Below are positions 12,378-28,676 of a DNA stretch of 32,000 bases, piece after piece (the first letter of the stretch is position 1; every line of letters starts with the position of its first letter). A program made the position numbers and the translations under genes. Origin of the DNA: Candidatus Hermodarchaeota archaeon. Lineage in GTDB: Archaea > Asgardarchaeota > Heimdallarchaeia > Hodarchaeales > Hodarchaeaceae. The stretch is taken from NCBI GenBank assembly GCA_048886185.1, contig JBHLKY010000006.1, positions 60,001-92,000 of the forward strand, given 5' to 3'. The notes under the pieces were generated by a model. That model had not been told where the DNA came from and did not search any database. It was given only the letters and a program-made list of their open reading frames with translations.

Positions 12378-13157
12378 ATGAACAAAAAATCATCAGATCT
12401 TGTTTTTAGAACAGATCCAGAAAAAACTGTTTGTGAATGTTCAACAGACATAAGCCCTGATTGGGTTGTTGTTGGTTTTCCTGGACATGGATTAGTTGGT
12501 AATATCGCTGCTAAGCATGTTATAAAAGAACTTGAGATGGAGTGGATCGGATCAATTCGTTCTCCTCTCATCCCTCCTATATCTGTTTTCATTGATGGTG
12601 TTCTAGCTTATCCGTACAGAATCTATGGTAGTAAAATACATAAATTTGTTGTTCTCATTGGCGAGTCTCCCTGTCCACCTCAAGCCTATTATTTTCTTGC
12701 CCATGCAATGTTAGAATGGGCAATTGATATTGGAGCTAAACAAGTTATTTGCTTAGATGGATTTGTTGCAGATTCTTTTGATGAGAAGAGCGATAAAGTC
12801 TTTTTAGTAGCTGAACCTCAAGCGTACGAGAAAGACTCCAATCTGATGAAATTCGATCTTCCTAAACCCCATACAGGATTTATTGCTGGCCTCTCTGGTG
12901 CAATAATGAATGAAGCCTTACTTACATCAATAGAAGGCTTTTCACTACTTGTTCCAGTGACAACTCCGTATCCTGATCCGGGTGGGGCTGCAAAACTTAT
13001 TAATGCAATTAATCAGATAAAAGGGCTTGAGATTGATACCTCTAAACTCCTTAAAGATGCAGAGAAGATTCAGAAATCTCTTATGGAACTAGCTGAACGG
13101 AATCGACAGTTGACTCAAGGAGAAGGAATAGAACCAAGTAAAGGTTTGTATGTCTGA
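12378..13157 (+). CDS. PAC2-family proteasome assembly chaperone (PbaA/PbaB-like) with C-terminal HbYX
   Basis: VVGFPGHGLVGNIAAKHVI, PYPDPGGAAKLI; ends GLYV; AAGGTGA RBS. Confidence 0.92.
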   Translation: MNKKSSDLVFRTDPEKTVCECSTDISPDWVVVGFPGHGLVGNIAAKHVIKELEMEWIGSIRSPLIPPISVFIDGVLAYPYRIYGSKIHKFVVLIGESPCPPQAYYFLAHAMLEWAIDIGAKQVICLDGFVADSFDEKSDKVFLVAEPQAYEKDSNLMKFDLPKPHTGFIAGLSGAIMNEALLTSIEGFSLLVPVTTPYPDPGGAAKLINAINQIKGLEIDTSKLLKDAEKIQKSLMELAERNRQLTQGEGIEPSKGLYV

Positions 13158-14163: not shown

Positions 14164-15141
14164 TCAAGAAGTGGGATTAGAAAACAAGGTTAACCGTTGA
14201 TGGCACATAGGGCATTGATTGAAAACTTTTAACCACTCTAGTAAGTGATTTCGGTGAAAGGAGTTTTGGCACGAAGGACATTCCACAATATCTTCATCTG
14301 GTTCAATGATGTAACGACATATTACACAATGTTTGTCATATTTTTGAGAGTTCTCCCACGATATACCTTCAACCACACTCCCCTTATAGGGACGTTCTAC
14401 TGTTAAGATCAAACTACCACGTTTATTATGATCTAAACTTCCACCAACCTCACCTTGAGATAAAATATGATCAATTATCTGTTGAAATAAATAATCATCC
14501 ACTATCTGATCTTGAATATGCTTTTGGACTTTGAAAAATAAGTAATCATACTCAATTTCGTTCCGAGGCCGAGAAAGTTGTATATTGATAGTGGTTAAAA
14601 TCCTCTGTCGTATTTCAGCTAAAAATATAATATTGGCACGCTTTTTTCTTATTTCTTTTTTAGCTTCATCTAATGATTTGATAATTTCTTTTAACTCCCT
14701 TTGAATCCGTGAATTGTGAATAGGAGAGGAATTCATTGAGATTTCTTCTGAGGTAAGAGAATAGATACCTTCCATTTCCGAATTAAGGTCATCCACCTCT
14801 TTGAGAGCTGCTTTCAATGTAAATATCGTTTGCAGCGGTTCTATCATTATAGCACGAACTGCTGCCTGTTGTACATCAAATCGCCGATTAACTAGCTCCT
14901 CTAAATACCGCGAGGTTTCTATAAAAAAAGGTTGACGCATTTTTTTATTTACAAAGTATGAAATTAAGACACTTACCCCGAATCCTCCCAAAAATGCAAA
15001 TTTATCGGTATTAGACGACACTCCAGCCCCAATAGCTCCTACGAAAAGGATTCCTCCAATACAAGTCAGTACAAAGATGATTACATTCCCAGATGTCTTG
15101 TTTCGAGACAATCGAGAGAGCTTTGTGACACTTGTAGCCAT
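14164..15141 (-). CDS. Membrane-anchored RING-like zinc-finger protein (putative E3 ligase-like)
   Basis: Two N-terminal TM segments, a coiled coil, and C-terminal C-x2-C-x12-C-x2-C-x4-H-x2-H-x3-W-x6-C-x2-C. Confidence 0.85.
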   Translation of the reverse strand: MATSVTKLSRLSRNKTSGNVIIFVLTCIGGILFVGAIGAGVSSNTDKFAFLGGFGVSVLISYFVNKKMRQPFFIETSRYLEELVNRRFDVQQAAVRAIMIEPLQTIFTLKAALKEVDDLNSEMEGIYSLTSEEISMNSSPIHNSRIQRELKEIIKSLDEAKKEIRKKRANIIFLAEIRQRILTTINIQLSRPRNEIEYDYLFFKVQKHIQDQIVDDYLFQQIIDHILSQGEVGGSLDHNKRGSLILTVERPYKGSVVEGISWENSQKYDKHCVICRYIIEPDEDIVECPSCQNSFHRNHLLEWLKVFNQCPMCHQRLTLFSNPTS

Positions 15142-16340: not shown

Positions 16341-17081
16341 ATGGTTCGTCTCAAAGCAGTATATTTAATCACCGAGGAAGGATTTGTTATCTATAACCAA
16401 TCGTTTGGTGTAACAGAGCAGGATCAGGACATGGTTGGCTCACTTCTTATGGCGTTGAGAAGTTTTGGCAAGGAAGCTTTAGGAGAGGGATCATTGTCTA
16501 AAGTAGACTTTGGAGAAGGAGCAGACATGATTTTGGAATCAGGTAACAGGATAATTGCGATTGCTGTGGTAATCCTCGATAAGGAACATAAAGAGAGAGA
16601 GGAATATGATATTCGTAAAGATTTATTGAAATTTGTAAGAAGAATTGAGGAAATTTACGTGGAAGAACTGGATGACCCCATCTTTCAAAAAAGTGCCTTT
16701 TCAGGGGTTGGAACCCAAATATACCAGCATTTTTTCCGTGATAAAATGTCTAGGATCCACAACAATCAATTTGCTAGTTTGAATGAGTACTTAAAATATC
16801 CAACAACCCTCCTTTTTGAGATAACTCCTAGGGGTGGAAGACTATACAATTTTTATAGAGAATTTCCTAAATTTACTGAATTAATTGGAGATATCCAGAA
16901 GGAGGATTTTGATGAATTGATAGTAGGTATGTTAGATAAAAACAGCATGGTTTCATTTAAAGACTGTCTTGATTATTTCGGTGAAGAACGAATGGATAGA
17001 ATTTTTGAAGTCTTCAAATTTCTTACAAATCGAGGTATGTTCGAGGCGTATAATTTTGAGCGCATAGCTATTGAAACATGA
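16341..17081 (+). CDS. Longin-like domain protein with probable C-terminal winged helix
   Basis: N-terminal beta-beta-alpha-beta-beta-beta-alpha-alpha pattern (AVYLITEEG..IYNQ; DMVGSLLMALRSFGKE; IIAIAVV; IRKDLLKFVRRIEEIY); C-terminal SFKDCLDYF..RIFEVFKFLTNRGMFEAY. Confidence 0.78.
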   Translation: MVRLKAVYLITEEGFVIYNQSFGVTEQDQDMVGSLLMALRSFGKEALGEGSLSKVDFGEGADMILESGNRIIAIAVVILDKEHKEREEYDIRKDLLKFVRRIEEIYVEELDDPIFQKSAFSGVGTQIYQHFFRDKMSRIHNNQFASLNEYLKYPTTLLFEITPRGGRLYNFYREFPKFTELIGDIQKEDFDELIVGMLDKNSMVSFKDCLDYFGEERMDRIFEVFKFLTNRGMFEAYNFERIAIET

Positions 17082-17124: not shown

Positions 17125-17976
17125 TTAGGGTTCTTTTCGTTGTGTGCGTACAATAAATGCAGTCATCTTTTTCATTTCTTTTTGCATTGACGTAAGTTCA
17201 GCAATAACTCGCTGTTCAACTGCAGTGTTAATCTGTTGATTCATTATCTCTGGGAGGGAGCTAATACTCTGAGTTAATTGACCTGTTGCTTTAACTAATC
17301 TTTGAAGAGTTCCATCTTGTGAAGCTAATTTTTCAGTTACAGATGTTTTTAGCTCGTTGACTGATGCTTCCAAGTAAATAACAATACGGTCACGCAGCGA
17401 AGCCAATTCTACTTGGATTATTGCATTCACACGATCCCGAAGTTCAGCAACAGTAGCTAGCTGATCAGTTTGATTTTCTATTAATGCATTTAAATTACTT
17501 TCAATATTGTCAAGCTTATCTGAAATCACTACAAAATTAGCGGTACTGGCTTCGAATCGGCCTTTTGTTTCCTCGGTAGATGATTCTATCATTCCTGTAA
17601 TATCATTAGATAGTGTTCGCATACTCCCAACAACATCTTCAACATAGCTGACTTTGATAAACTTCAGATCATTCTTTGTTTCTTCAGCTGTGGTCACAAA
17701 AGTCTTTTGGAACGATCCAATGGATTCTTCAAGATTTGTAATGATCAGAGGAAGGTTTTGAATTGAAGTTTGTAATTCTGAACTAATTTTCGAAGCATCT
17801 ACTATTTGTTGGATTGCTGACAACCTTTCCTCAAGATTACTTAATACTAGAAAAGTATTTTGTACTGATGATTGAACCTCTGCCATTATTTTGGAGGGAT
17901 CTGCCACTCTCTGGAGCGATTGCTTTATTTCCAGAACTTGATCCTTAATGTTTTTAATGTCATCTTCTAAGCCCAT
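17125..17976 (-). CDS. Coiled-coil/apolipoprotein-like helical protein with internal 34-aa duplication
   Basis: Continuous amphipathic heptad pattern, no TM; aa 26-59 versus 60-93 share 15/34 identities; GTGAGG RBS. Confidence 0.8.
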   Translation of the reverse strand: MGLEDDIKNIKDQVLEIKQSLQRVADPSKIMAEVQSSVQNTFLVLSNLEERLSAIQQIVDASKISSELQTSIQNLPLIITNLEESIGSFQKTFVTTAEETKNDLKFIKVSYVEDVVGSMRTLSNDITGMIESSTEETKGRFEASTANFVVISDKLDNIESNLNALIENQTDQLATVAELRDRVNAIIQVELASLRDRIVIYLEASVNELKTSVTEKLASQDGTLQRLVKATGQLTQSISSLPEIMNQQINTAVEQRVIAELTSMQKEMKKMTAFIVRTQRKEP

Positions 17977-18134
17977 TCTATTTCCTCACATCTTATTCTA
18001 TCATTATAGAAAAATATTGAACTCAAAAATTCTAAAAGATTTTCGAAACCTTACGACTCTGATAGCTTTTATTTCATTCTTGAAAAAAACCTAGTATGAG
18101 CTTTTGAGGTTTGTTCCAGCATTTCAGAGAATAT

Positions 18135-19217
18135 CTATTTCAAGCGTCTTAAGAAAGTTACAAACGTCTCATTTTCCAACATTGAATTATTCAACCGATT
18201 GATAAGGATGATCGTTTCTGATGAAATTACTCGCTTGATTTCATTTTCTGTGGCATTTTGCGCATCTAGATCAACTACTTTAACAACACTGTAAGAAACA
18301 TTAGGTATTCTTGATTCTAGGTCACCCGTTCCAAGATTATAGTTTTTTAGAACGCCTGAAGAGATTCGAAGAGAATCTTGTAAACTCCGATTGTTCTCTA
18401 AATACTCTGATATGTTTCTATAGTAGCTTTCCACTATCTCTTGAATTTGTTCTTGTTCGGTAGATGTGGGAGTTGAGTCGGGTTCGGAAGGAAACATTCT
18501 ACGAAGGTTTTGTAGTAGACGAGCAGCAGGAGCTTCTCGTAATAATTTTCTTATAAGAACTCTAAGAGTAAAAGCAGGAATTTTAATTATTTCGTGGTGA
18601 TTAGAGAAGTTAGTTTGGTGTTGTATCTCATAACGATGTAGTTCTTTACATGCAGCAAAGTAATAATTGGGAAAACCCAAATGAGATAAACTTGAGTATG
18701 AGGCTAATAATTTTTCAATAGACTCAATTATTCCCCATTTATCAAGATAGACCGCGTTTCGTTGAAAATGACCAATTTGTTCTGGTGTTACCTGAACTAC
18801 TTTCTTTTTTGACACAACTGTAGAAGTTGAATAACTAGAGAGATCCTCAAGTAGAGTAGTTATTTTTGAGTGAATGGCTTCACTTTTTTCTAGAATATTT
18901 AGGTCCGACTCTGGTTGCATGAGTATTTTAGAACAGAACTCCTGAATCATGACCAAAGTTGCAATCAAATCGTCAGTTAAAGGATGTTCCCTCTGTAGAA
19001 TTTGAACTAGATTTGTGCTTAGGTTAATAAGTAAAAGATTTAATCCAATTAAGAGATTAATCTTTTCGCCCATGTTCCCCCGTGATGTCCAAAAGTCCAG
19101 TGAAGGGTATTGAGGTTTCTCAGTCTCAGGTTTGGGTTTGATTTTATCTTCTTCAGATTGTAATAAATCCTGGCTTTTATTAATATTTTCAAATCCTGAA
19201 GGCTCTTTTTCGTCCAC
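18135..19217 (-). CDS. Hypothetical protein directly downstream of the tubulin-like gene
   Basis: 360-aa ORF, GTG start 20 bp after the tubulin-like stop; disordered N-terminus then helical; no motif recognised. Confidence 0.75.
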   Translation of the reverse strand: MDEKEPSGFENINKSQDLLQSEEDKIKPKPETEKPQYPSLDFWTSRGNMGEKINLLIGLNLLLINLSTNLVQILQREHPLTDDLIATLVMIQEFCSKILMQPESDLNILEKSEAIHSKITTLLEDLSSYSTSTVVSKKKVVQVTPEQIGHFQRNAVYLDKWGIIESIEKLLASYSSLSHLGFPNYYFAACKELHRYEIQHQTNFSNHHEIIKIPAFTLRVLIRKLLREAPAARLLQNLRRMFPSEPDSTPTSTEQEQIQEIVESYYRNISEYLENNRSLQDSLRISSGVLKNYNLGTGDLESRIPNVSYSVVKVVDLDAQNATENEIKRVISSETIILINRLNNSMLENETFVTFLRRLK

Positions 19218-19237
19218 TTTGATCCAGCACCATATAT

Positions 19238-20602
19238 TTATTCTGGTTTAATGTAATAACCAAATAATTTTTCCAAATCGTTTACTGCAGCGTCCAATTC
19301 TTTCCGTGTGGTTCCTTTTGATCGTTTAAACCAATGCTGCTTCAATTCCGAGTCTCCACTGTGAAGATTTATGAGAGCTTTAGCCTCCTCAAGAATATCA
19401 TGTAATTCTGGTATTTTTGGCAGACCAAATAATAGAAGAAGTGAGGCACGAGTGGTGTCATCGTCATATGCACAATAAGTTGGAGATATACTCGCACCTT
19501 TAGCTAAAAATGGTGTTAATGCTTTTTTCAAAAGGGGGTCATATTCTACTCGAGCAATATTACGAGGGCCGCTGAGAACAGAGAAAACAGATGACGCTGA
19601 AGGGTTCGTACCCATGTCAGTTAAGCTACAATTGGAAAGAGTGTATTCAACTGCTGTTGAAAATTGAGAGTCCATCCCACCTATTTCAGGGAAGACAGAT
19701 AAATCGTCAAACATTGCAGGTACAACAACACTATCTAATTTTAATGCAAAATCACCAATATCAGTCGTTGGCAGAACTTCTTTTCCTAACTCAGGTACGC
19801 CAGGAGACAACATTTCAGCAATAGATTCTAAAGCTAAAGGGTTAACCAGTTCGACAAATGCCTCCTCCATCTGAGTAGGATATGCTGTGCCATCTTGGCC
19901 AATAATACTTGGAATATTTGGGCCAATCTGTTCACTGCTCAAATCAGCTAGATCTTTTCCTATTTGTCTACTTAATAAATCAACAGATTCCCCGCGTTGC
20001 CAATTTAAAACCCTTTGAAGCATTGTTCTATTAGAAAGAAGAAGAATAAGATCAGGTCCCATATTTCCTTCCTCAAGCTGAAGTCGAAGCAATTTAGATA
20101 GTGCCCAGACGCTGTTTACGGCTTCTGATGACTGGTTAACGAAAGGTAATACCCCAAAGACATAGATGAATATTTTACGTTTTTCTTCCTCCGCAAATCT
20201 CTTTCTTAAAAGACGTATTAAAGCTGGAGTACCTCCACAACCAGTTCCTCCTCCAAAACTAGTGAAAATGCAAAATCCACTGATTCCCTCGTAACCTAGT
20301 CCCTGTAATTGATTTAAAATAATATCCTGGGAATTCATAACAGCATCGTAACCTGAGGAAAATTTTCCACCAACTCCAATCTCTGCGTCTGAATATAGAA
20401 GTGTTCTCTTTTTCGATATGGAATATTTCTTTCGTGCTTTCAATAAGTCACCACGATCGGTATTCAACACTAAGTATTCTCTAATACGTTGGGGTAACTC
20501 TCCTCTCTTGGATCGTGCCAAGTAACTACCCACAAGATTGCTACCGCATTCGCCAATACCGATCGCAAATATCTCAGATTCAGACTCGCCTTCAATTGAC
20601 AT
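19238..20602 (-). CDS. Tubulin/FtsZ-superfamily GTPase (CetZ/tubulin-like)
   Basis: T1 GIGECGSNL, T2 LNTD, T3 GVGGKFSSG, T4 signature SFGGGTGCGG, VLPF, LSN, T7-like TTDIGDF, C-terminal LLLFGLPKIPEL helices. Confidence 0.92.
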   Translation of the reverse strand: MSIEGESESEIFAIGIGECGSNLVGSYLARSKRGELPQRIREYLVLNTDRGDLLKARKKYSISKKRTLLYSDAEIGVGGKFSSGYDAVMNSQDIILNQLQGLGYEGISGFCIFTSFGGGTGCGGTPALIRLLRKRFAEEEKRKIFIYVFGVLPFVNQSSEAVNSVWALSKLLRLQLEEGNMGPDLILLLSNRTMLQRVLNWQRGESVDLLSRQIGKDLADLSSEQIGPNIPSIIGQDGTAYPTQMEEAFVELVNPLALESIAEMLSPGVPELGKEVLPTTDIGDFALKLDSVVVPAMFDDLSVFPEIGGMDSQFSTAVEYTLSNCSLTDMGTNPSASSVFSVLSGPRNIARVEYDPLLKKALTPFLAKGASISPTYCAYDDDTTRASLLLLFGLPKIPELHDILEEAKALINLHSGDSELKQHWFKRSKGTTRKELDAAVNDLEKLFGYYIKPE

Positions 20603-20642
20603 TATGACACACTCAATTCTTTCTTTTTAATTTGTAGCTTGT

Positions 20643-23600
20643 TCAATTCTCCAGTTGGATTCCAGATTTAATTTCTATTAGTAATTTCATTACTAGGCTC
20701 AGATATGAACGAATTACCTTATTATGAGGATAAGTTTCCTTGATTTTCTTTGAAATTTCCTTATACTGTCGTGAGTTTTCCTCAACACTATCTGTCGGAG
20801 TGTATCGAGAACGAAACATACGAATAGCGCGATGCCAATGGTTCAACTGTATAGATACTTTTTTCCATTCTTCTCTTTGTTTATCTATCTTTGGTAATAA
20901 TTCTAATATATATCTGAGATCATGAGAGTCGAGAAACTCTTCTCGTGCTTTTACTAAAGTTGATAAGGGAAAAATACTCTTCGAAGCTTCCTTTGTATAT
21001 CTCTTGAAGACTTCTTGAATATTCGAATAATATTCTAAACCTCCCAACTCTGTTTGCAACGCAGCATTTCTATCCTTTTCGATTTTCTTCATGATTTCAA
21101 TTACTGTTCCTCGAACCGAGACTAGTTCAAGAATCGCTTGTGTTAGCCTGCTAATATGATTAACAGTCGCAGTCTCCTGAAATCGGCTTAAATATGCAAG
21201 ATCCACGTGTTCATCCTGACGTAAATCAATTTGATAGTGATTGAATAGATATTCAACTGTATCCTGGATCTCTGTAATGTATCTTTTTCCCATAGACCTG
21301 ATTTCACGGCAAGCATTTGAATCGGTCTGTAAGCGATCAATTTCTACAAAGACATCTGTTATTTCCCGTAACTCAACATTTTCTTGATTCTTAACAATAA
21401 TTTGACTGAAATTTTCGATGTATCCCCCGACATACTCGATGATGTTTATCCCGACTTCTTTTAAATCATTAACATTTTTCAAAACCCTTCGTGATTCCTG
21501 TACACCATGGGTCAGTAGGATAGCTACGATTTCAGTATCATACATGTAAATGAGCTGATGTAATTTGTGAGCTAATCTCTCATGAGATGCTTCTTCAGCT
21601 TCAAAGTCTGCAATCTTCTTCTCTGCAGCAAATACAGGATCATTGATTGGTGTTATTTCATTTATTCTAGGAAGGCTAACTCTTAACCAATTATAGAGGT
21701 TTTGATGCAGCTTAGCTAGTGAATCTTTCGCCATCTGTAAACTTTCCAAGCTATAACTCTCATAAACGTTGACTAAACGAACAATATCTTTGTGTGTTTT
21801 AATTTCAATCATTTTTTCTTCCATAAGTTTCAGAGTTTCGTTAAAAAAAGTTGCATACTGACTAGGAAGTTTCGAATAGTCTTCTATATGAGAGGAAATT
21901 TCCCGTTCCATCTGTTCAGCCAAGGTGGAAGATTTCCGCTCAATAAAAGCTTGTAATTGCCAATATTCTGTTAAAGCTTCAGAATAATCAAGATCACTAA
22001 TTTCCTTTTCAGTGGAATAAATTAGGCTGCTCTTACGAGATTTTAATAATCGAAAGAGTCTCCTATCGACCCCCTCCAGATTAGCAATTTGTTTCTTCAG
22101 TTCAATAAGAATTTCATTTTTATTTTCTTCAATTTTTTCTAGGAAAGATATGTATTCTTTAATTACAGCTTCAATATTTCCAGATTCTGAGTATTCGTCA
22201 ATTAAAGTGATAGTTTGGTTACGTTTTTCCCTTAGGTCAAATCGTGTCTCTATAGGGATCAAAGGAAATGGAATTGATTTTAAATTTTCACGGATCCGTG
22301 AAGATATTTTGTACTTCCAGATAGGGATCTTTTCGTATTCATCTAAAAACTCTTGAATACTTTTCTGTGATGCTACGCTGATTTCCTCTCTGAAAGTTTT
22401 AATATCATCCAGTGTGAGAATGGGGACATGGGTTTTTAATTTTGGCGGAATCGTCTCTAGATTAGTTAGTTGATTATAAATTGGATGTATTTCTGTATCT
22501 ATTTTGTTCCAAAGTTCAGTCTTAATGTTTGTATTTAGGCGATGAAGTCTTTCTATCTCATGAACTAAATCTCGAATATCTATCTCTTCTACAATTTTAT
22601 GCTTTCTCTGATATTCGATCTGATCTTTCAGGTCATCAGATAGAATATCACGCAAACTTTCACGCGAATCAAAGAGATTTAGCAAATTTTGTCTAAGGCT
22701 TTGTTGAGCTGGCTTAGAGAAATATGCAACCAGACGGGTTTCCCAATCTTTTATTTCTCGAGCTTTGTTACTTAATTCACTAGGAGATAAGGCTTCAAAA
22801 TCACGAATGATTGGGATTTTTGGGCCCTCACTAAGATTTATGACTTCTTGTATGTGAGGATTTTCCAATAATCTGTAGAAATAGTTCTGACATTCTTCAG
22901 CGAGTGATGATTTCAACCCATGATATCTTTTTGCTATTTCTACCCACTCCTGAAGTTCTCTTGTTTCTGAGGCTTTTTTTTCAATCAAACGTACTTCTTT
23001 CTCAAAATTAGGGGGAACTGATATCTTCATTGCCTGAATGGATTTAGAAGCGTTGATTAATTCGGATGTACTGATTATCTTCTTTGTTGCAATGATTTGT
23101 TGCTGACGCCAAGAACGGATTTTCTCAATATCTTGAATAATAGTTGGAATACTTGTCGATGAAACATCAGTTTCAGGAGCTGCTGAATAAGAAGACTCTA
23201 GCTCTACTTTTCCAACAATCTGTATAATTCGTCCGATTTGGTCTTCAGTTTCTGTTTTTAGTGATATTTCGTATGTCCTGAGAGCATTTACGAATTCATT
23301 AGTAAGACTATTCAGTTTCTTTTCTAAACTAATGAGATTTTCAACCGATGTGGTTTTATCCGCACTAACTTGAATTTCTTGTACATCTTCTTTCAAAACA
23401 TCAATTTTTCTCCAAAGATCTAATCCTATTGATGCTACGGTATCAATGTGTTGTTGTAGCTCGGAAGACATTTGAATTATTGCCAGTTGGATTTTTCCTT
23501 CAGTTCCCTTCCGTCGTTGCTTCAAATATGCATTTTCAGCTTCTAACTGACTATATACTTCAAGTAAATCCGTGATCGTCATGACATGTATACTGGTTTT

Positions 23601-24170
23601 TGTTGTTTGATTTGTTACTCGAATCTTTTCTTCATCAAAATTCACAAATTTACCATAAAGCTCTATAATCTCACGATTAAATAACAAAATCGAAACGCTT
23701 TTCCCTCGTAAGACCTCAGAAGTCCGACTATATGTTCTAAGAACATCTGAACTAAATTTTACGATCTCATTGACATTAAAACTAGGAATTTGCAGCTTAC
23801 GAATGGTTTCTGTTTCTTGGGGGATAAATTTAGCAATCTCTTTGATATTATTTGCTAGGTCAAAGTAGATCTTGCGAAAACCAACCAGAAGAGAGTTTAA
23901 CAACTCATCAGTTAGTTTATTATATCTTTCTTTATTCTGCGTAAGAGCTTTCTTGATTCCTCTTTTTTTCAGGAATCCTGCTGTTGGTAAGTCTTTTTCT
24001 AACTTTTCAATTTCACCTATTACTTTTTGTGCTTCATTTAATGCAGGAATAACTTGCACAGTCGGGTCAACTGATCGTAATTCAGTCACCAATTCTCTAA
24101 TCTTGTGTAGAACTTCCTTTGAAACGAGAAGTTCTCTCGAACTCGATTCCGAGGTCATATTAGCTAGCAT
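20643..24170 (-). CDS. 1175-aa all-alpha helical-repeat (rod-like) protein
   Basis: No TM or nucleotide-binding motif; recurring N-cap plus amphipathic helix motif about every 68 aa; stop lies 40 bp before the tubulin-like start. Confidence 0.88.
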   Translation of the reverse strand: MLANMTSESSSRELLVSKEVLHKIRELVTELRSVDPTVQVIPALNEAQKVIGEIEKLEKDLPTAGFLKKRGIKKALTQNKERYNKLTDELLNSLLVGFRKIYFDLANNIKEIAKFIPQETETIRKLQIPSFNVNEIVKFSSDVLRTYSRTSEVLRGKSVSILLFNREIIELYGKFVNFDEEKIRVTNQTTKTSIHVMTITDLLEVYSQLEAENAYLKQRRKGTEGKIQLAIIQMSSELQQHIDTVASIGLDLWRKIDVLKEDVQEIQVSADKTTSVENLISLEKKLNSLTNEFVNALRTYEISLKTETEDQIGRIIQIVGKVELESSYSAAPETDVSSTSIPTIIQDIEKIRSWRQQQIIATKKIISTSELINASKSIQAMKISVPPNFEKEVRLIEKKASETRELQEWVEIAKRYHGLKSSLAEECQNYFYRLLENPHIQEVINLSEGPKIPIIRDFEALSPSELSNKAREIKDWETRLVAYFSKPAQQSLRQNLLNLFDSRESLRDILSDDLKDQIEYQRKHKIVEEIDIRDLVHEIERLHRLNTNIKTELWNKIDTEIHPIYNQLTNLETIPPKLKTHVPILTLDDIKTFREEISVASQKSIQEFLDEYEKIPIWKYKISSRIRENLKSIPFPLIPIETRFDLREKRNQTITLIDEYSESGNIEAVIKEYISFLEKIEENKNEILIELKKQIANLEGVDRRLFRLLKSRKSSLIYSTEKEISDLDYSEALTEYWQLQAFIERKSSTLAEQMEREISSHIEDYSKLPSQYATFFNETLKLMEEKMIEIKTHKDIVRLVNVYESYSLESLQMAKDSLAKLHQNLYNWLRVSLPRINEITPINDPVFAAEKKIADFEAEEASHERLAHKLHQLIYMYDTEIVAILLTHGVQESRRVLKNVNDLKEVGINIIEYVGGYIENFSQIIVKNQENVELREITDVFVEIDRLQTDSNACREIRSMGKRYITEIQDTVEYLFNHYQIDLRQDEHVDLAYLSRFQETATVNHISRLTQAILELVSVRGTVIEIMKKIEKDRNAALQTELGGLEYYSNIQEVFKRYTKEASKSIFPLSTLVKAREEFLDSHDLRYILELLPKIDKQREEWKKVSIQLNHWHRAIRMFRSRYTPTDSVEENSRQYKEISKKIKETYPHNKVIRSYLSLVMKLLIEIKSGIQLEN

Positions 24171-24530
24171 CCTACGGGATTAAGGTGTGGTTTCTACTTG
24201 TTACCATTGTAAGGAGAGGGTTCTTTATATGTTTCAGTATTATTACTGAATTATAGCTCACAATGATTTTTCCTTTTTTAAATTAATCCAATAATTGGAA
24301 CTCTTGAATGTTGGACGAATCAATGAATATCAATATCCTGGCTGAAAACTCTTAAAAAAAGTGATAAATTATATTAAGCAAGTTCCAACTCATATCGATA
24401 ACAGAAAAGAATTTCAGGTAATTATATATAACTCATTTTCAGCTAAATCCTCATTCAGGAGTTTTGATCTGACAAGTGTTCATTCTACTGGAAAATTCGT
24501 AGATTTATAATTTTTGAGGGATTTCTAAAA

Positions 24531-27719: not shown

Positions 27720-28676
27720 TCAGTCTTCATTAGCTTCAGATGACCGAGTTGGTTTATAAATGTCCAAAGGCCATTGCTTTTTCATTAATTTTAAAAGCAC
27801 TCGCGAATCAAACTGTTCAATCTCAATTGATGCCGAAGCTGTTTTCATTAATCTTTCAGCAATTAGTTTAGCTCGTACAACAGAATCAGAATACCCAATT
27901 ATAAGGCCAATTACTAAAGGATGGTTCTTTACAATAACTAGTTGAAGATCGGAAGCTGTAATAACTTCCATTCCAGCTGGATTCAGAGAAAGTTCTTTTA
28001 CTGTTTCACTTATCCCCATATTAAGCTGATCTAAGATTTCCTTTGCAATATTAGTAAATTTTGTCGTGTATATCTGGTGTGACTCCAGATCTATCAGAAT
28101 CGCCACTCGTACTTTACTCTTAAATGTAGATTCTTCTCCTACGAGAACATCAGCTATCCAATCAAAAGCATCATAGAAATTTTCTCCCGTTTTTGCGGAG
28201 ATACGAAAAAGACCTACTGGTCTAGCAGATCTTTGCGCACGTGTCAGATCGAGATCTTGGATTATCAGGTCAAATGCTCGAGCCCCAGGCAAGTCTATTT
28301 TGTTTGCGATAAAGAGGACAGGAACTTTCTCATTTCGCTGAATTGAATCCCAAAAAGCCGTGGACGCTTCTGAAAGACGGAGATCAGCACTATCAAGAAC
28401 GAAAACGATCGCTGAAGCTTTTTCTATAGAATCATACCAAAGAAGGTTACGATAAATCTCTTGTCCCCCAAGATCTACTAAATTGAACTCAATTTGACGA
28501 TATTTTACAGTTCGGTAGTTCACACCTAAAGTTCGTGTTGTAGGCACAAATTCTGATCTTAATAATCGATTGACAATCGTTGTTTTTCCAGCACCGTCGA
28601 GACCGATAATAGTAATTTCGTATTTATCGGCTTTTTTTCCTTTGAAAATTCTTCGTAATATACTCGACACTGACAT
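27720..28676 (-). CDS. Arf-type small GTPase fused to a C-terminal longin/roadblock-like domain
   Basis: N-terminal amphipathic helix MSVSSILRRIF, G1 GLDGAGKTT, G2 TLG, G3 DLGGQ, G4 NKID, G5 SAK; extra ~130 aa with a beta-beta-alpha-beta-beta-beta-alpha-alpha pattern. Confidence 0.92.
   Translation of the reverse strand: MSVSSILRRIFKGKKADKYEITIIGLDGAGKTTIVNRLLRSEFVPTTRTLGVNYRTVKYRQIEFNLVDLGGQEIYRNLLWYDSIEKASAIVFVLDSADLRLSEASTAFWDSIQRNEKVPVLFIANKIDLPGARAFDLIIQDLDLTRAQRSARPVGLFRISAKTGENFYDAFDWIADVLVGEESTFKSKVRVAILIDLESHQIYTTKFTNIAKEILDQLNMGISETVKELSLNPAGMEVITASDLQLVIVKNHPLVIGLIIGYSDSVVRAKLIAERLMKTASASIEIEQFDSRVLLKLMKKQWPLDIYKPTRSSEANED

Follow-up and report, generated by a model that had tools for sequence, protein, structure and literature searches.

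We analyzed a stretch of 32,000 nucleotides from a Candidatus Hermodarchaeota archaeon of the order Hodarchaeales (GenBank assembly GCA_048886185.1, contig JBHLKY010000006.1, positions 60,001 to 92,000 of the forward strand), referred to here as the window and numbered from its first letter. Three adjacent genes in it encode a very large protein (the giant, P0001), a GTPase of the tubulin/FtsZ superfamily (P0002) and a small partner (P0003). The three genes keep their order and are inherited together in part of the Asgard archaea, and the giant is predicted to bind the GTPase; we consider it probable that they specify a dedicated system of filaments decorated by the giant. The genes and the features that bound them are as follows (aa, amino acids; ORF, open reading frame).

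20643..24170, minus strand: giant gene (P0001), ORF of 1175 aa counted from the first ATG
19238..20602, minus strand: GTPase gene (P0002, classed below as an Asg.Tub, tubulin/FtsZ superfamily), ORF of 454 aa
18135..19217, minus strand: small partner gene (P0003), ORF of 360 aa with a GTG start
17125..17976, minus strand: coiled-coil neighbor gene (P0004), ORF of 283 aa
18083..18089, minus strand: run of seven T (T7 run), candidate archaeal terminator closing the three-gene unit, 46-52 nt past the small-gene stop (sequence reading)
24171..24530, no strand assigned: divergent intergenic region of 360 bp upstream of the giant gene (TATA-like boxes)

The ORF coordinates agree with the preliminary description of the window, which had reported three same-strand genes separated by 40 bp (giant/GTPase) and 20 bp (GTPase/small) and followed 158 bp later by the coiled-coil gene. 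The giant is more likely to start at the ATG at 24158, giving 1171 aa, because its orthologs and the database record begin at residue 5 and M5 is nearly invariant, and the GTG start of the 360-aa gene is backed by orthologs beginning MD(E/R)K at the same place. No stretch of five or more T occurs in the gaps of 40 and 20 nt. The 360-bp region preceding the giant gene has TATA-like boxes at 24223-24230 (ATATAAAG) and 24271-24285 (TTAATTTAAAAAAGG) and contains no tandem or direct-repeat arrays and no iteron array. The boundaries of the unit, i.e. its putative promoter and terminator, were read off the sequence.

Conservation and co-inheritance of the three genes

The order giant, GTPase, small on one strand was found in 20/20 orthologous loci inspected. 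These comprised four loci of this genus, two of a sister family, Heimdall LC-3 and two Thorarchaeota-type contigs, and also included ten loci from seven further Asgard families. Neighboring genes of the trio were separated by gaps of at most 70 bp or overlapped, with the exception of one Hodarchaeales locus (L026, 137 bp), and the reading frames overlap in several loci. In the LC-3 locus (L035) the giant, GTPase and small proteins have 1396, 454 and 392 aa respectively, and in the two Thorarchaeota-type contigs they have 895, 459-460 and 359-362 aa. The genes flanking the trio differ among lineages.

To define the phyletic distribution we used profile searches of one evenly drawn sample of 301 Asgard genomes, which covers 30 families. 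Matches were obtained in 114 genomes for the GTPase, 113 for the small protein and 118 for the giant. The matches to each of the three fall in the same nine families (f1, f2, f10, f11, f13, f17, f19, f20 and f28 in our numbering), and none was matched in the other 21 (e.g. 0/68 genomes of f14), so that the trio is present in about a third of the sampled Asgard genomes, Hodarchaeales and Thorarchaeota included. The three genes share one phyletic pattern, their arrangement is far beyond chance, and the linkage that the preliminary description had proposed to check by synteny across Asgard genomes is thereby borne out.

Conserved synteny without shared function would be one way to read these loci. 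We give this explanation almost no credence, because the order persists in nine Asgard families despite changing surroundings, the patterns of presence and absence are identical, frames overlap in several lineages, the giant and GTPase genes have been duplicated as a pair, and binding between their products is predicted with null controls (the last two points are described below).

Two departures from the compact arrangement were observed. In one species of the genus (genome G002) a 1202-aa ORF (L033:10355-13963) lies between the giant and GTPase genes and separates the pair by 4.3 kb; its product matches no Pfam family and has no detectable similarity to the giant. In a genome of family f11 (G073, contig C69) the small gene does not adjoin the GTPase gene and lies ~8 kb downstream of it, a displacement that suggests an insertion.

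Duplication of the giant and GTPase genes

Eight genomes of this genus, including the one analyzed here, contain a second GTPase gene, and a second giant gene is always found directly upstream of it. Between paralogous pairs, sequence identity is 55-57% for the GTPases but only 21-24% for the giants. The giant and GTPase genes have therefore been duplicated as a unit, and duplication as a unit followed by divergence is what would be expected if each giant works with its own GTPase. A tree of the paralogs, for which the FtsZ of this genome served as outgroup, left the branching point of the duplicate among Hodarchaeales unresolved, with a very long branch to the outgroup and open basal forks.

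The paralogous locus (genome G000, contig C10, L024:4562-12601) consists of a gene for a 311-aa orphan protein, the second giant gene (1141 aa) and the second Asg.Tub gene (444 aa), and these are followed by a convergent gene for a 740-aa GTPase of the Gtr1/RagA family. Three other genomes of the genus were checked; two of them keep the 311-aa gene and all three keep the Rag-like gene. The 311-aa gene upstream of the second giant was considered as a substitute for the small gene and rejected (hhalign probability 0.07%; no relationship by BLASTP).

The GTPase

The 454-aa protein had been taken for a GTPase of the tubulin/FtsZ fold from its sequence, and this assignment held. P0002 matches PF00091 at 62.7 bits, against a Pfam cut-off of 33, over residues 10-171, and its AlphaFold2 (AF2) model (predicted local distance difference test, pLDDT, 83.7; predicted template modeling score, pTM, 0.85) has the full two-domain fold plus three C-terminal helices. 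When this model was compared with known structures by Foldseek, OdinTubulin, gamma- and beta-tubulin and CetZ ranked together (E 1e-19 to 1e-18, probability 1.00, template modeling (TM) score by query 0.59-0.67). A profile of the family matched the PDB at E values up to 1e-5, and the matches were CetZ chains alone (1.2e-11, 9.9e-8 and 9.3e-7), limited to the N-terminal GTPase domain (residues 15-160). The only NCBIfam match of P0002 was a sub-threshold one to ftsZ (32.8 bits vs 295). The following elements of the protein were located.

20231..20254, minus strand: T4 nucleotide-binding signature GGGTGCGG, residues 117-124 (alignment of 119 members)
19751..19771, minus strand: T7 loop PTTDIGD, residues 278-284 (alignment of 119 members)
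19871..19981, minus strand: variable, predicted-disordered H6-H7 insertion, residues 208-244 (pLDDT; alignment)
19631..19705, minus strand: S7-H9 loop (M-loop position) and helix H9, residues 300-324, predicted docking surface for the giant

Across the 119 family members aligned, G117, G118, G121, C122, G123 and G124 of the T4 signature are invariant and G119 and T120 nearly so, with a Cys standing in place of the Ser of tubulin or the Thr of FtsZ. The T1 loop, GIGECGSN, is likewise invariant or nearly so. In the T7 loop, which aligns with TDLGDF of CetZ, P278, T280, D281 and D284 are invariant. The two acidic residues of T7 complete the GTPase site of the adjacent protofilament subunit in FtsZ and tubulin, and their invariance therefore argues for head-to-tail assembly. 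Judged by these motifs, P0002 retains every element needed for GTP binding and hydrolysis in a head-to-tail protofilament. Within the H6-H7 insertion pLDDT falls below 50 at residues 208-211 and 215-244, and the alignment consensus is undefined there.

The genome has three PF00091 genes, i.e. one FtsZ-like gene, the gene for P0002 and, on another contig, its paralog (57% identical). Many archaea have both FtsZ1 and FtsZ2; in this genome (G000, 96% complete) a single FtsZ-like gene was found beside the two Asg.Tub paralogs, and no bona fide tubulin of the Atub or Odin type was found.

The family to which P0002 belongs has been named previously. Santana-Molina, del Saz-Navarro and Devos (2023) introduced Asg.Tub as a 'CetZ-like group in Asgardarchaeota' (PMC9871819), a set of four sequences (KXH77455.1, OLS30664.1, OLS26264.1 and PWI48967.1), two of them from Thorarchaeales, one from LC-3 and one from B3-JM-08 (PMC9871819). 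The position of Asg.Tub was unstable between CetZ and the tubulins and the group was judged to be CetZ-like, apart from CetZ; its neighboring genes were given as unknown, mostly with coiled-coil regions, and the genomic contexts of CetZ and CetZ-like genes as unrelated (PMC9871819). The supplementary alignment of that study shows the same GIGECGSN, GGGTGCGG and TTDxxD strings as P0002 (PMC9871819). The LC-3 assembly, GCA_001940645.1, is also the source of our LC-3 locus, whose GTPase is 56% identical to P0002; the Thorarchaeota members are 56-58% identical to it. Because the motif strings are the same and the LC-3 assembly is shared with our locus, P0002 is, on sequence grounds, an Asg.Tub. 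The gene combination had been called unrecognized in the preliminary description. This still applies to the trio, on which we found no paper (nor did a biochemical or cell-biological study of Asg.Tub turn up in the literature), but not to the GTPase, which already had a name and whose gene context had been noted (PMC9871819).

The giant

Two regions of the giant are referred to below.

22281..23543, minus strand: internal repeat region, residues ~210-630 (hhalign and Pro/Gly autocorrelation)
20712..20840, minus strand: conserved C-terminal docking block, residues 1111-1153 (conservation; complex prediction)

The reading of this protein as a helical-repeat protein was upheld by two properties, the alpha-helical periodicity of its hydrophobic residues and its internal repeats. 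The giant is rich in Glu, Leu, Ile and Lys, with Gly and Pro at ~2-3% each, and the hydrophobic moment, averaged over the alignment, has its peak at 100-105 degrees, the value for an alpha helix, with no beta peak. When 140-residue windows were compared with each other by hhalign, internal repeats emerged in residues 210-630, with probabilities of 93, 87 and 86% at offsets of ~122-135 residues, and the Pro/Gly breaks recur with autocorrelation peaks at 63-65 and 126-135 residues. The repeat period is ~125-135 aa, with a half-period of ~64 aa. Orthologs of ~900 aa outside Hodarchaeales lack residues ~360-600, which corresponds to roughly two repeats, and the number of repeats therefore varies. 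Conservation is highest in the last ~135 residues (the most conserved stretch being 1041-1160), and within the docking block W1112 and I1143 are invariant and H1113 nearly invariant. Residues 41-240, toward the N-terminus, form a further conserved region. No transmembrane helix is evident in the giant (maximum 19-residue hydropathy 1.24).

Scans of the giant against Pfam and NCBIfam, and Pfam scans of 39 aligned relatives, gave no consistent family. The best match in a profile search of the PDB (E 0.026) was rejected as helical-bias noise. Neither the giant nor its Thorarchaeota ortholog is modeled in the ESM Atlas, where the sole feature match was the family's own cluster.

Predicted binding of the giant to the GTPase

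Complex prediction, which had been suggested as a check on the original proposal, returned a confident interface. We modeled the GTPase together with residues 760-1175 of the giant in three runs, alongside three controls. The interaction prediction score from aligned errors (ipSAE) was 0.77, 0.77 and 0.76, compared with 0.00 for the best of the controls; the pLDDT of the partner was at least 84 and contact agreement between runs was at least 54%. The mark applied to such scores is passed by 58/80 solved complexes and 2/110 mismatched pairs, a calibration that is rough only, own alignments having been used. A pass owed to structures memorized by the predictor is unlikely, because the giant has no relative in the PDB.

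The confident contacts join residues 1111-1121 and 1142-1153 of the giant to residues 200, 204 and 300-324 of the GTPase. By the order of elements in the AF2 model, residues 300-309 are the S7-H9 loop, which occupies the position of the M-loop of tubulin, and residues 310-324 are helix H9. In tubulin the S7-H9 loop and H9 form the lateral face, apart from the longitudinal contacts made by T7, H8 and the nucleotide face; the lateral face is unoccupied in a single protofilament and mediates the side-to-side contacts of microtubules. A giant lying along a protofilament would therefore be consistent with such a contact. Conservation of the contact residues on the giant, which include the invariant W1112, exceeds that of residues drawn at random from 760-1175 (0.64 vs 0.54), and 1.4% of random sets reach this value. 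The contact residues differ systematically between the two paralogous pairs, on both proteins, and these differences fit a specificity-determining interface, which falls short of proof. Taken together, the predictions support binding of the C-terminal block of the giant to the lateral face of the GTPase.

The same contact could also serve a different purpose. The three proteins might form a complex without extended filaments, in which the GTPase is a monomeric or dimeric switch, or a short oligomer, on a helical scaffold, and the giant, bound to the lateral face, acts as its regulator and does not decorate a polymer. Co-inheritance and predicted binding would fit this equally well, the large disordered H6-H7 insertion lies next to the longitudinal interface, and similarity to polymerizing relatives is weak outside the N-terminal domain. 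Such a complex is nevertheless unlikely in our judgement, since the two T7 acids, whose role is only in the nucleotide pocket of the next subunit, are invariant in all 119 members and the complete two-domain fold with its C-terminal helices has been kept.

The small partner

The AF2 model of P0003 (pLDDT 76.9, rising above 90 over most of residues 150-360) has a disordered N-terminus, a three-helix bundle at residues 44-135 and a conserved all-alpha C-terminal domain at ~150-360. Searches for a known family or fold gave nothing convincing: Pfam returned nothing consistent, NCBIfam no family, a profile search of the PDB nothing significant, and Foldseek against the PDB a best E of 0.28, and a shape search of the Atlas, whose own model of P0003 is poor (pLDDT 0.39), gave TM scores of at most 0.32. 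VIA-align matched the N-terminal bundle to generic bundles at Z 8-10, under the trusted level for helical proteins, and barely covered the C-terminal domain; these matches were rejected. In a profile search of 1.84 billion representative proteins, 56 clusters matched P0003, and the source names that were checked were all Asgard archaea.

A tubulin-like GTPase encoded beside two orphan partners recalls the TubZRC and PhuZ operons, which typically pair a tubulin-like GTPase with dedicated, fast-evolving partners, and this raises the question of whether the trio might serve DNA segregation of the TubZ kind (type III partition), in which the tubulin-like motor would push or pull DNA by way of the giant or the small protein as adaptor. 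We consider this improbable. Neither partner has a DNA-binding domain detectable with Pfam or NCBIfam (a novel fold being possible), and no array of iterons or of centromere-like repeats lies within the operon or next to it. The genes are moreover chromosomal and mostly single-copy, they follow lineage boundaries and not mobile elements, and their neighbors are housekeeping genes.

A probable filament system specific to part of the Asgard archaea

We therefore return to the reading that we consider probable, i.e. that the trio is one operon encoding a dedicated system of the tubulin superfamily, restricted to some of the Asgard archaea, in which filaments of the GTPase are decorated by the giant. 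It builds on the observed gene order, co-inheritance, co-duplication, intact motifs and fold. From the motifs we infer that Asg.Tub would assemble into GTP-dependent head-to-tail filaments. The giant would be a modular all-helical rod, the last ~135 residues of which are predicted to attach laterally to the GTPase, at its S7-H9 loop and H9. This docking face is free in a single protofilament, and the giant would therefore decorate the filaments, projecting a long repeat arm. The arm may act as a cross-link or spacer between filaments or fasten them to another structure; the scaffolding function and the cellular role of the giant are in this sense proposals. The small protein would be the third obligate component, acting as a cap, a regulator or an anchor. 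A dedicated Asgard filament system with a repeat protein is also what had been proposed at the outset. Synteny, co-inheritance and the predicted binding of giant and GTPase speak for the dedicated Asgard system, while filament formation and scaffolding by the repeat protein keep their conditional status.

Several points weigh against this interpretation. The evidence for polymerization consists of conserved motifs only, and in the AF2 model of P0002 a disordered insertion of ~30-37 aa between H6 and H7 sits close to the longitudinal interface. The contact prediction covers one segment of the giant, and the score of the complex is the model's own confidence rather than a measurement. On the GTPase, conservation of the contact residues is below the protein's average (0.54 vs 0.68). 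Finally, a small gene is missing from the paralogous locus, a single copy being present per genome, and the trio is therefore not strictly obligatory.

A more specific version of the proposal, which we put forward tentatively and regard as doubtful in its details, is that the giant is a prokaryotic counterpart of the microtubule-associated proteins (MAPs), with a C-terminal clamp on the M-loop/H9 surface of Asg.Tub protofilaments and helical repeats of 65/130 aa, variable in number, that set the spacing or length of the array. The co-duplicated and co-evolving pairs of Hodarchaeales would then constitute two insulated systems.

Polymers of the tubulin superfamily have a central part in cell division and in shaping cells, and the origin of the many binding partners of tubulin is a question of eukaryogenesis. 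This operon supplies a tubulin-like GTPase with two dedicated, co-inherited partners, and if the more specific, MAP-like version is true, tubulin-type polymers with dedicated lateral-surface partners occur in the archaeal lineage proposed to be closest to eukaryotes. The organisms are hard to grow, but the predicted interface on the lateral face is mutable and can be tested with recombinant proteins, and the duplication of giant and GTPase amounts to a built-in specificity experiment.

Neighboring genes

The coiled-coil gene that follows the trio had been put forward as a possible fourth member of the unit, and this part of the original proposal we withdraw. Homologs of P0004 adjoin the trio only in four loci (L027, L028, L032 and L033), all of this genus, and P0004 is therefore treated as a neighbor outside the conserved trio. 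The gene has its own TATA-like box (18001-18014), with GAGG before the ATG, and the T7 run precedes it; by these signals it is probably a separate transcription unit.

The absence of a typical ftsZ context was borne out among the window ORFs of at least 100 aa, where the secE, nusG, rplK and sepF families were not found. The remaining gene content of the window is characteristic of Asgard genomes, with genes for Cdc48, an Arf-family GTPase, a prokaryotic RING finger, PAC2, Nre and eIF-2B, and the named sources of close homologs are Hodarchaeales or Heimdallarchaeota. Three further neighbors were recorded.

27720-28676, minus strand: Arf-family small GTPase of 318 aa (PF00025, 1e-33) with a C-terminal extension of ~140 aa, 3.5 kb upstream of the operon, past Cdc48
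16341-17081, plus strand: ORF of 246 aa between the coiled-coil and nucleotidyl-transferase genes, with no Pfam match
14164-15141, minus strand: protein of 325 aa with a C-terminal prokaryotic RING finger (PF14446, 28.9 bits against a cut-off of 29.1; also zf-RING_2, 24.3 bits), near the PAC2 proteasome-assembly gene (12378-13157)

In the two Thorarchaeota-type loci (L034:4098-6047 and L036:3294-5264) a gene for a WD40 beta-propeller protein of ~650 aa lies divergently upstream of the giant gene; the Hodarchaeales loci have no WD40 gene at that position.

Comparison with known systems

The closest precedent is the description of Asg.Tub itself, which was a phylogeny of four sequences and did not include the three-gene unit, the partner families, their co-inheritance, the duplication or the contact (PMC9871819). 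The window extends that description: giant and GTPase genes were duplicated as a pair in Hodarchaeales, the three families match in phyletic pattern, the number of repeats varies, and the predicted interface is specific and testable.

Among characterized families CetZ (PDB 4b46, 3zid and 4b45), whose members are tubulin-like proteins of archaeal cell shape, is the nearest to P0002 by sequence. The two share the fold, a T7 loop of the TDxGD type and the C-terminal helices. P0002 differs from CetZ in the Cys of its T4 signature and in its H6-H7 insertion, and the sequence match is confined to the N-terminal domain. CetZ is moreover a family of Euryarchaeota, whereas the named sources of the P0002 family are all Asgard archaea, and CetZ genes are not accompanied by giant or small partner genes. 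P0002 is further removed from the bona fide tubulins (eukaryotic, Odin, AtubA/B and BtubA/B): it has no Tubulin_C match, its matches to tubulin chains have E values of 3e-4 or worse and cover residues 90-148 only, and identity in structural alignments is 12-17%.

In its working principle, and in that respect only, the proposed system resembles BtubA/BtubB with BtubC, and tubulin with MAPs, in each of which a polymer of the tubulin fold has a dedicated all-helical partner on its lateral or outer surface. BtubC is encoded beside its polymer genes, and MAPs act as cross-linkers or spacers. The giant is far larger than BtubC, and the partners have no relationship to one another in sequence or fold. 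A similar idea, i.e. a rod-like helical protein that organizes a polymer of the FtsZ family, is embodied by FtsZ with EzrA or SepF. EzrA and SepF bind the C-terminal tail of FtsZ; Asg.Tub, unlike FtsZ, has no such tail and ends in structured helices, and the contact predicted for the giant is on the globular lateral face.

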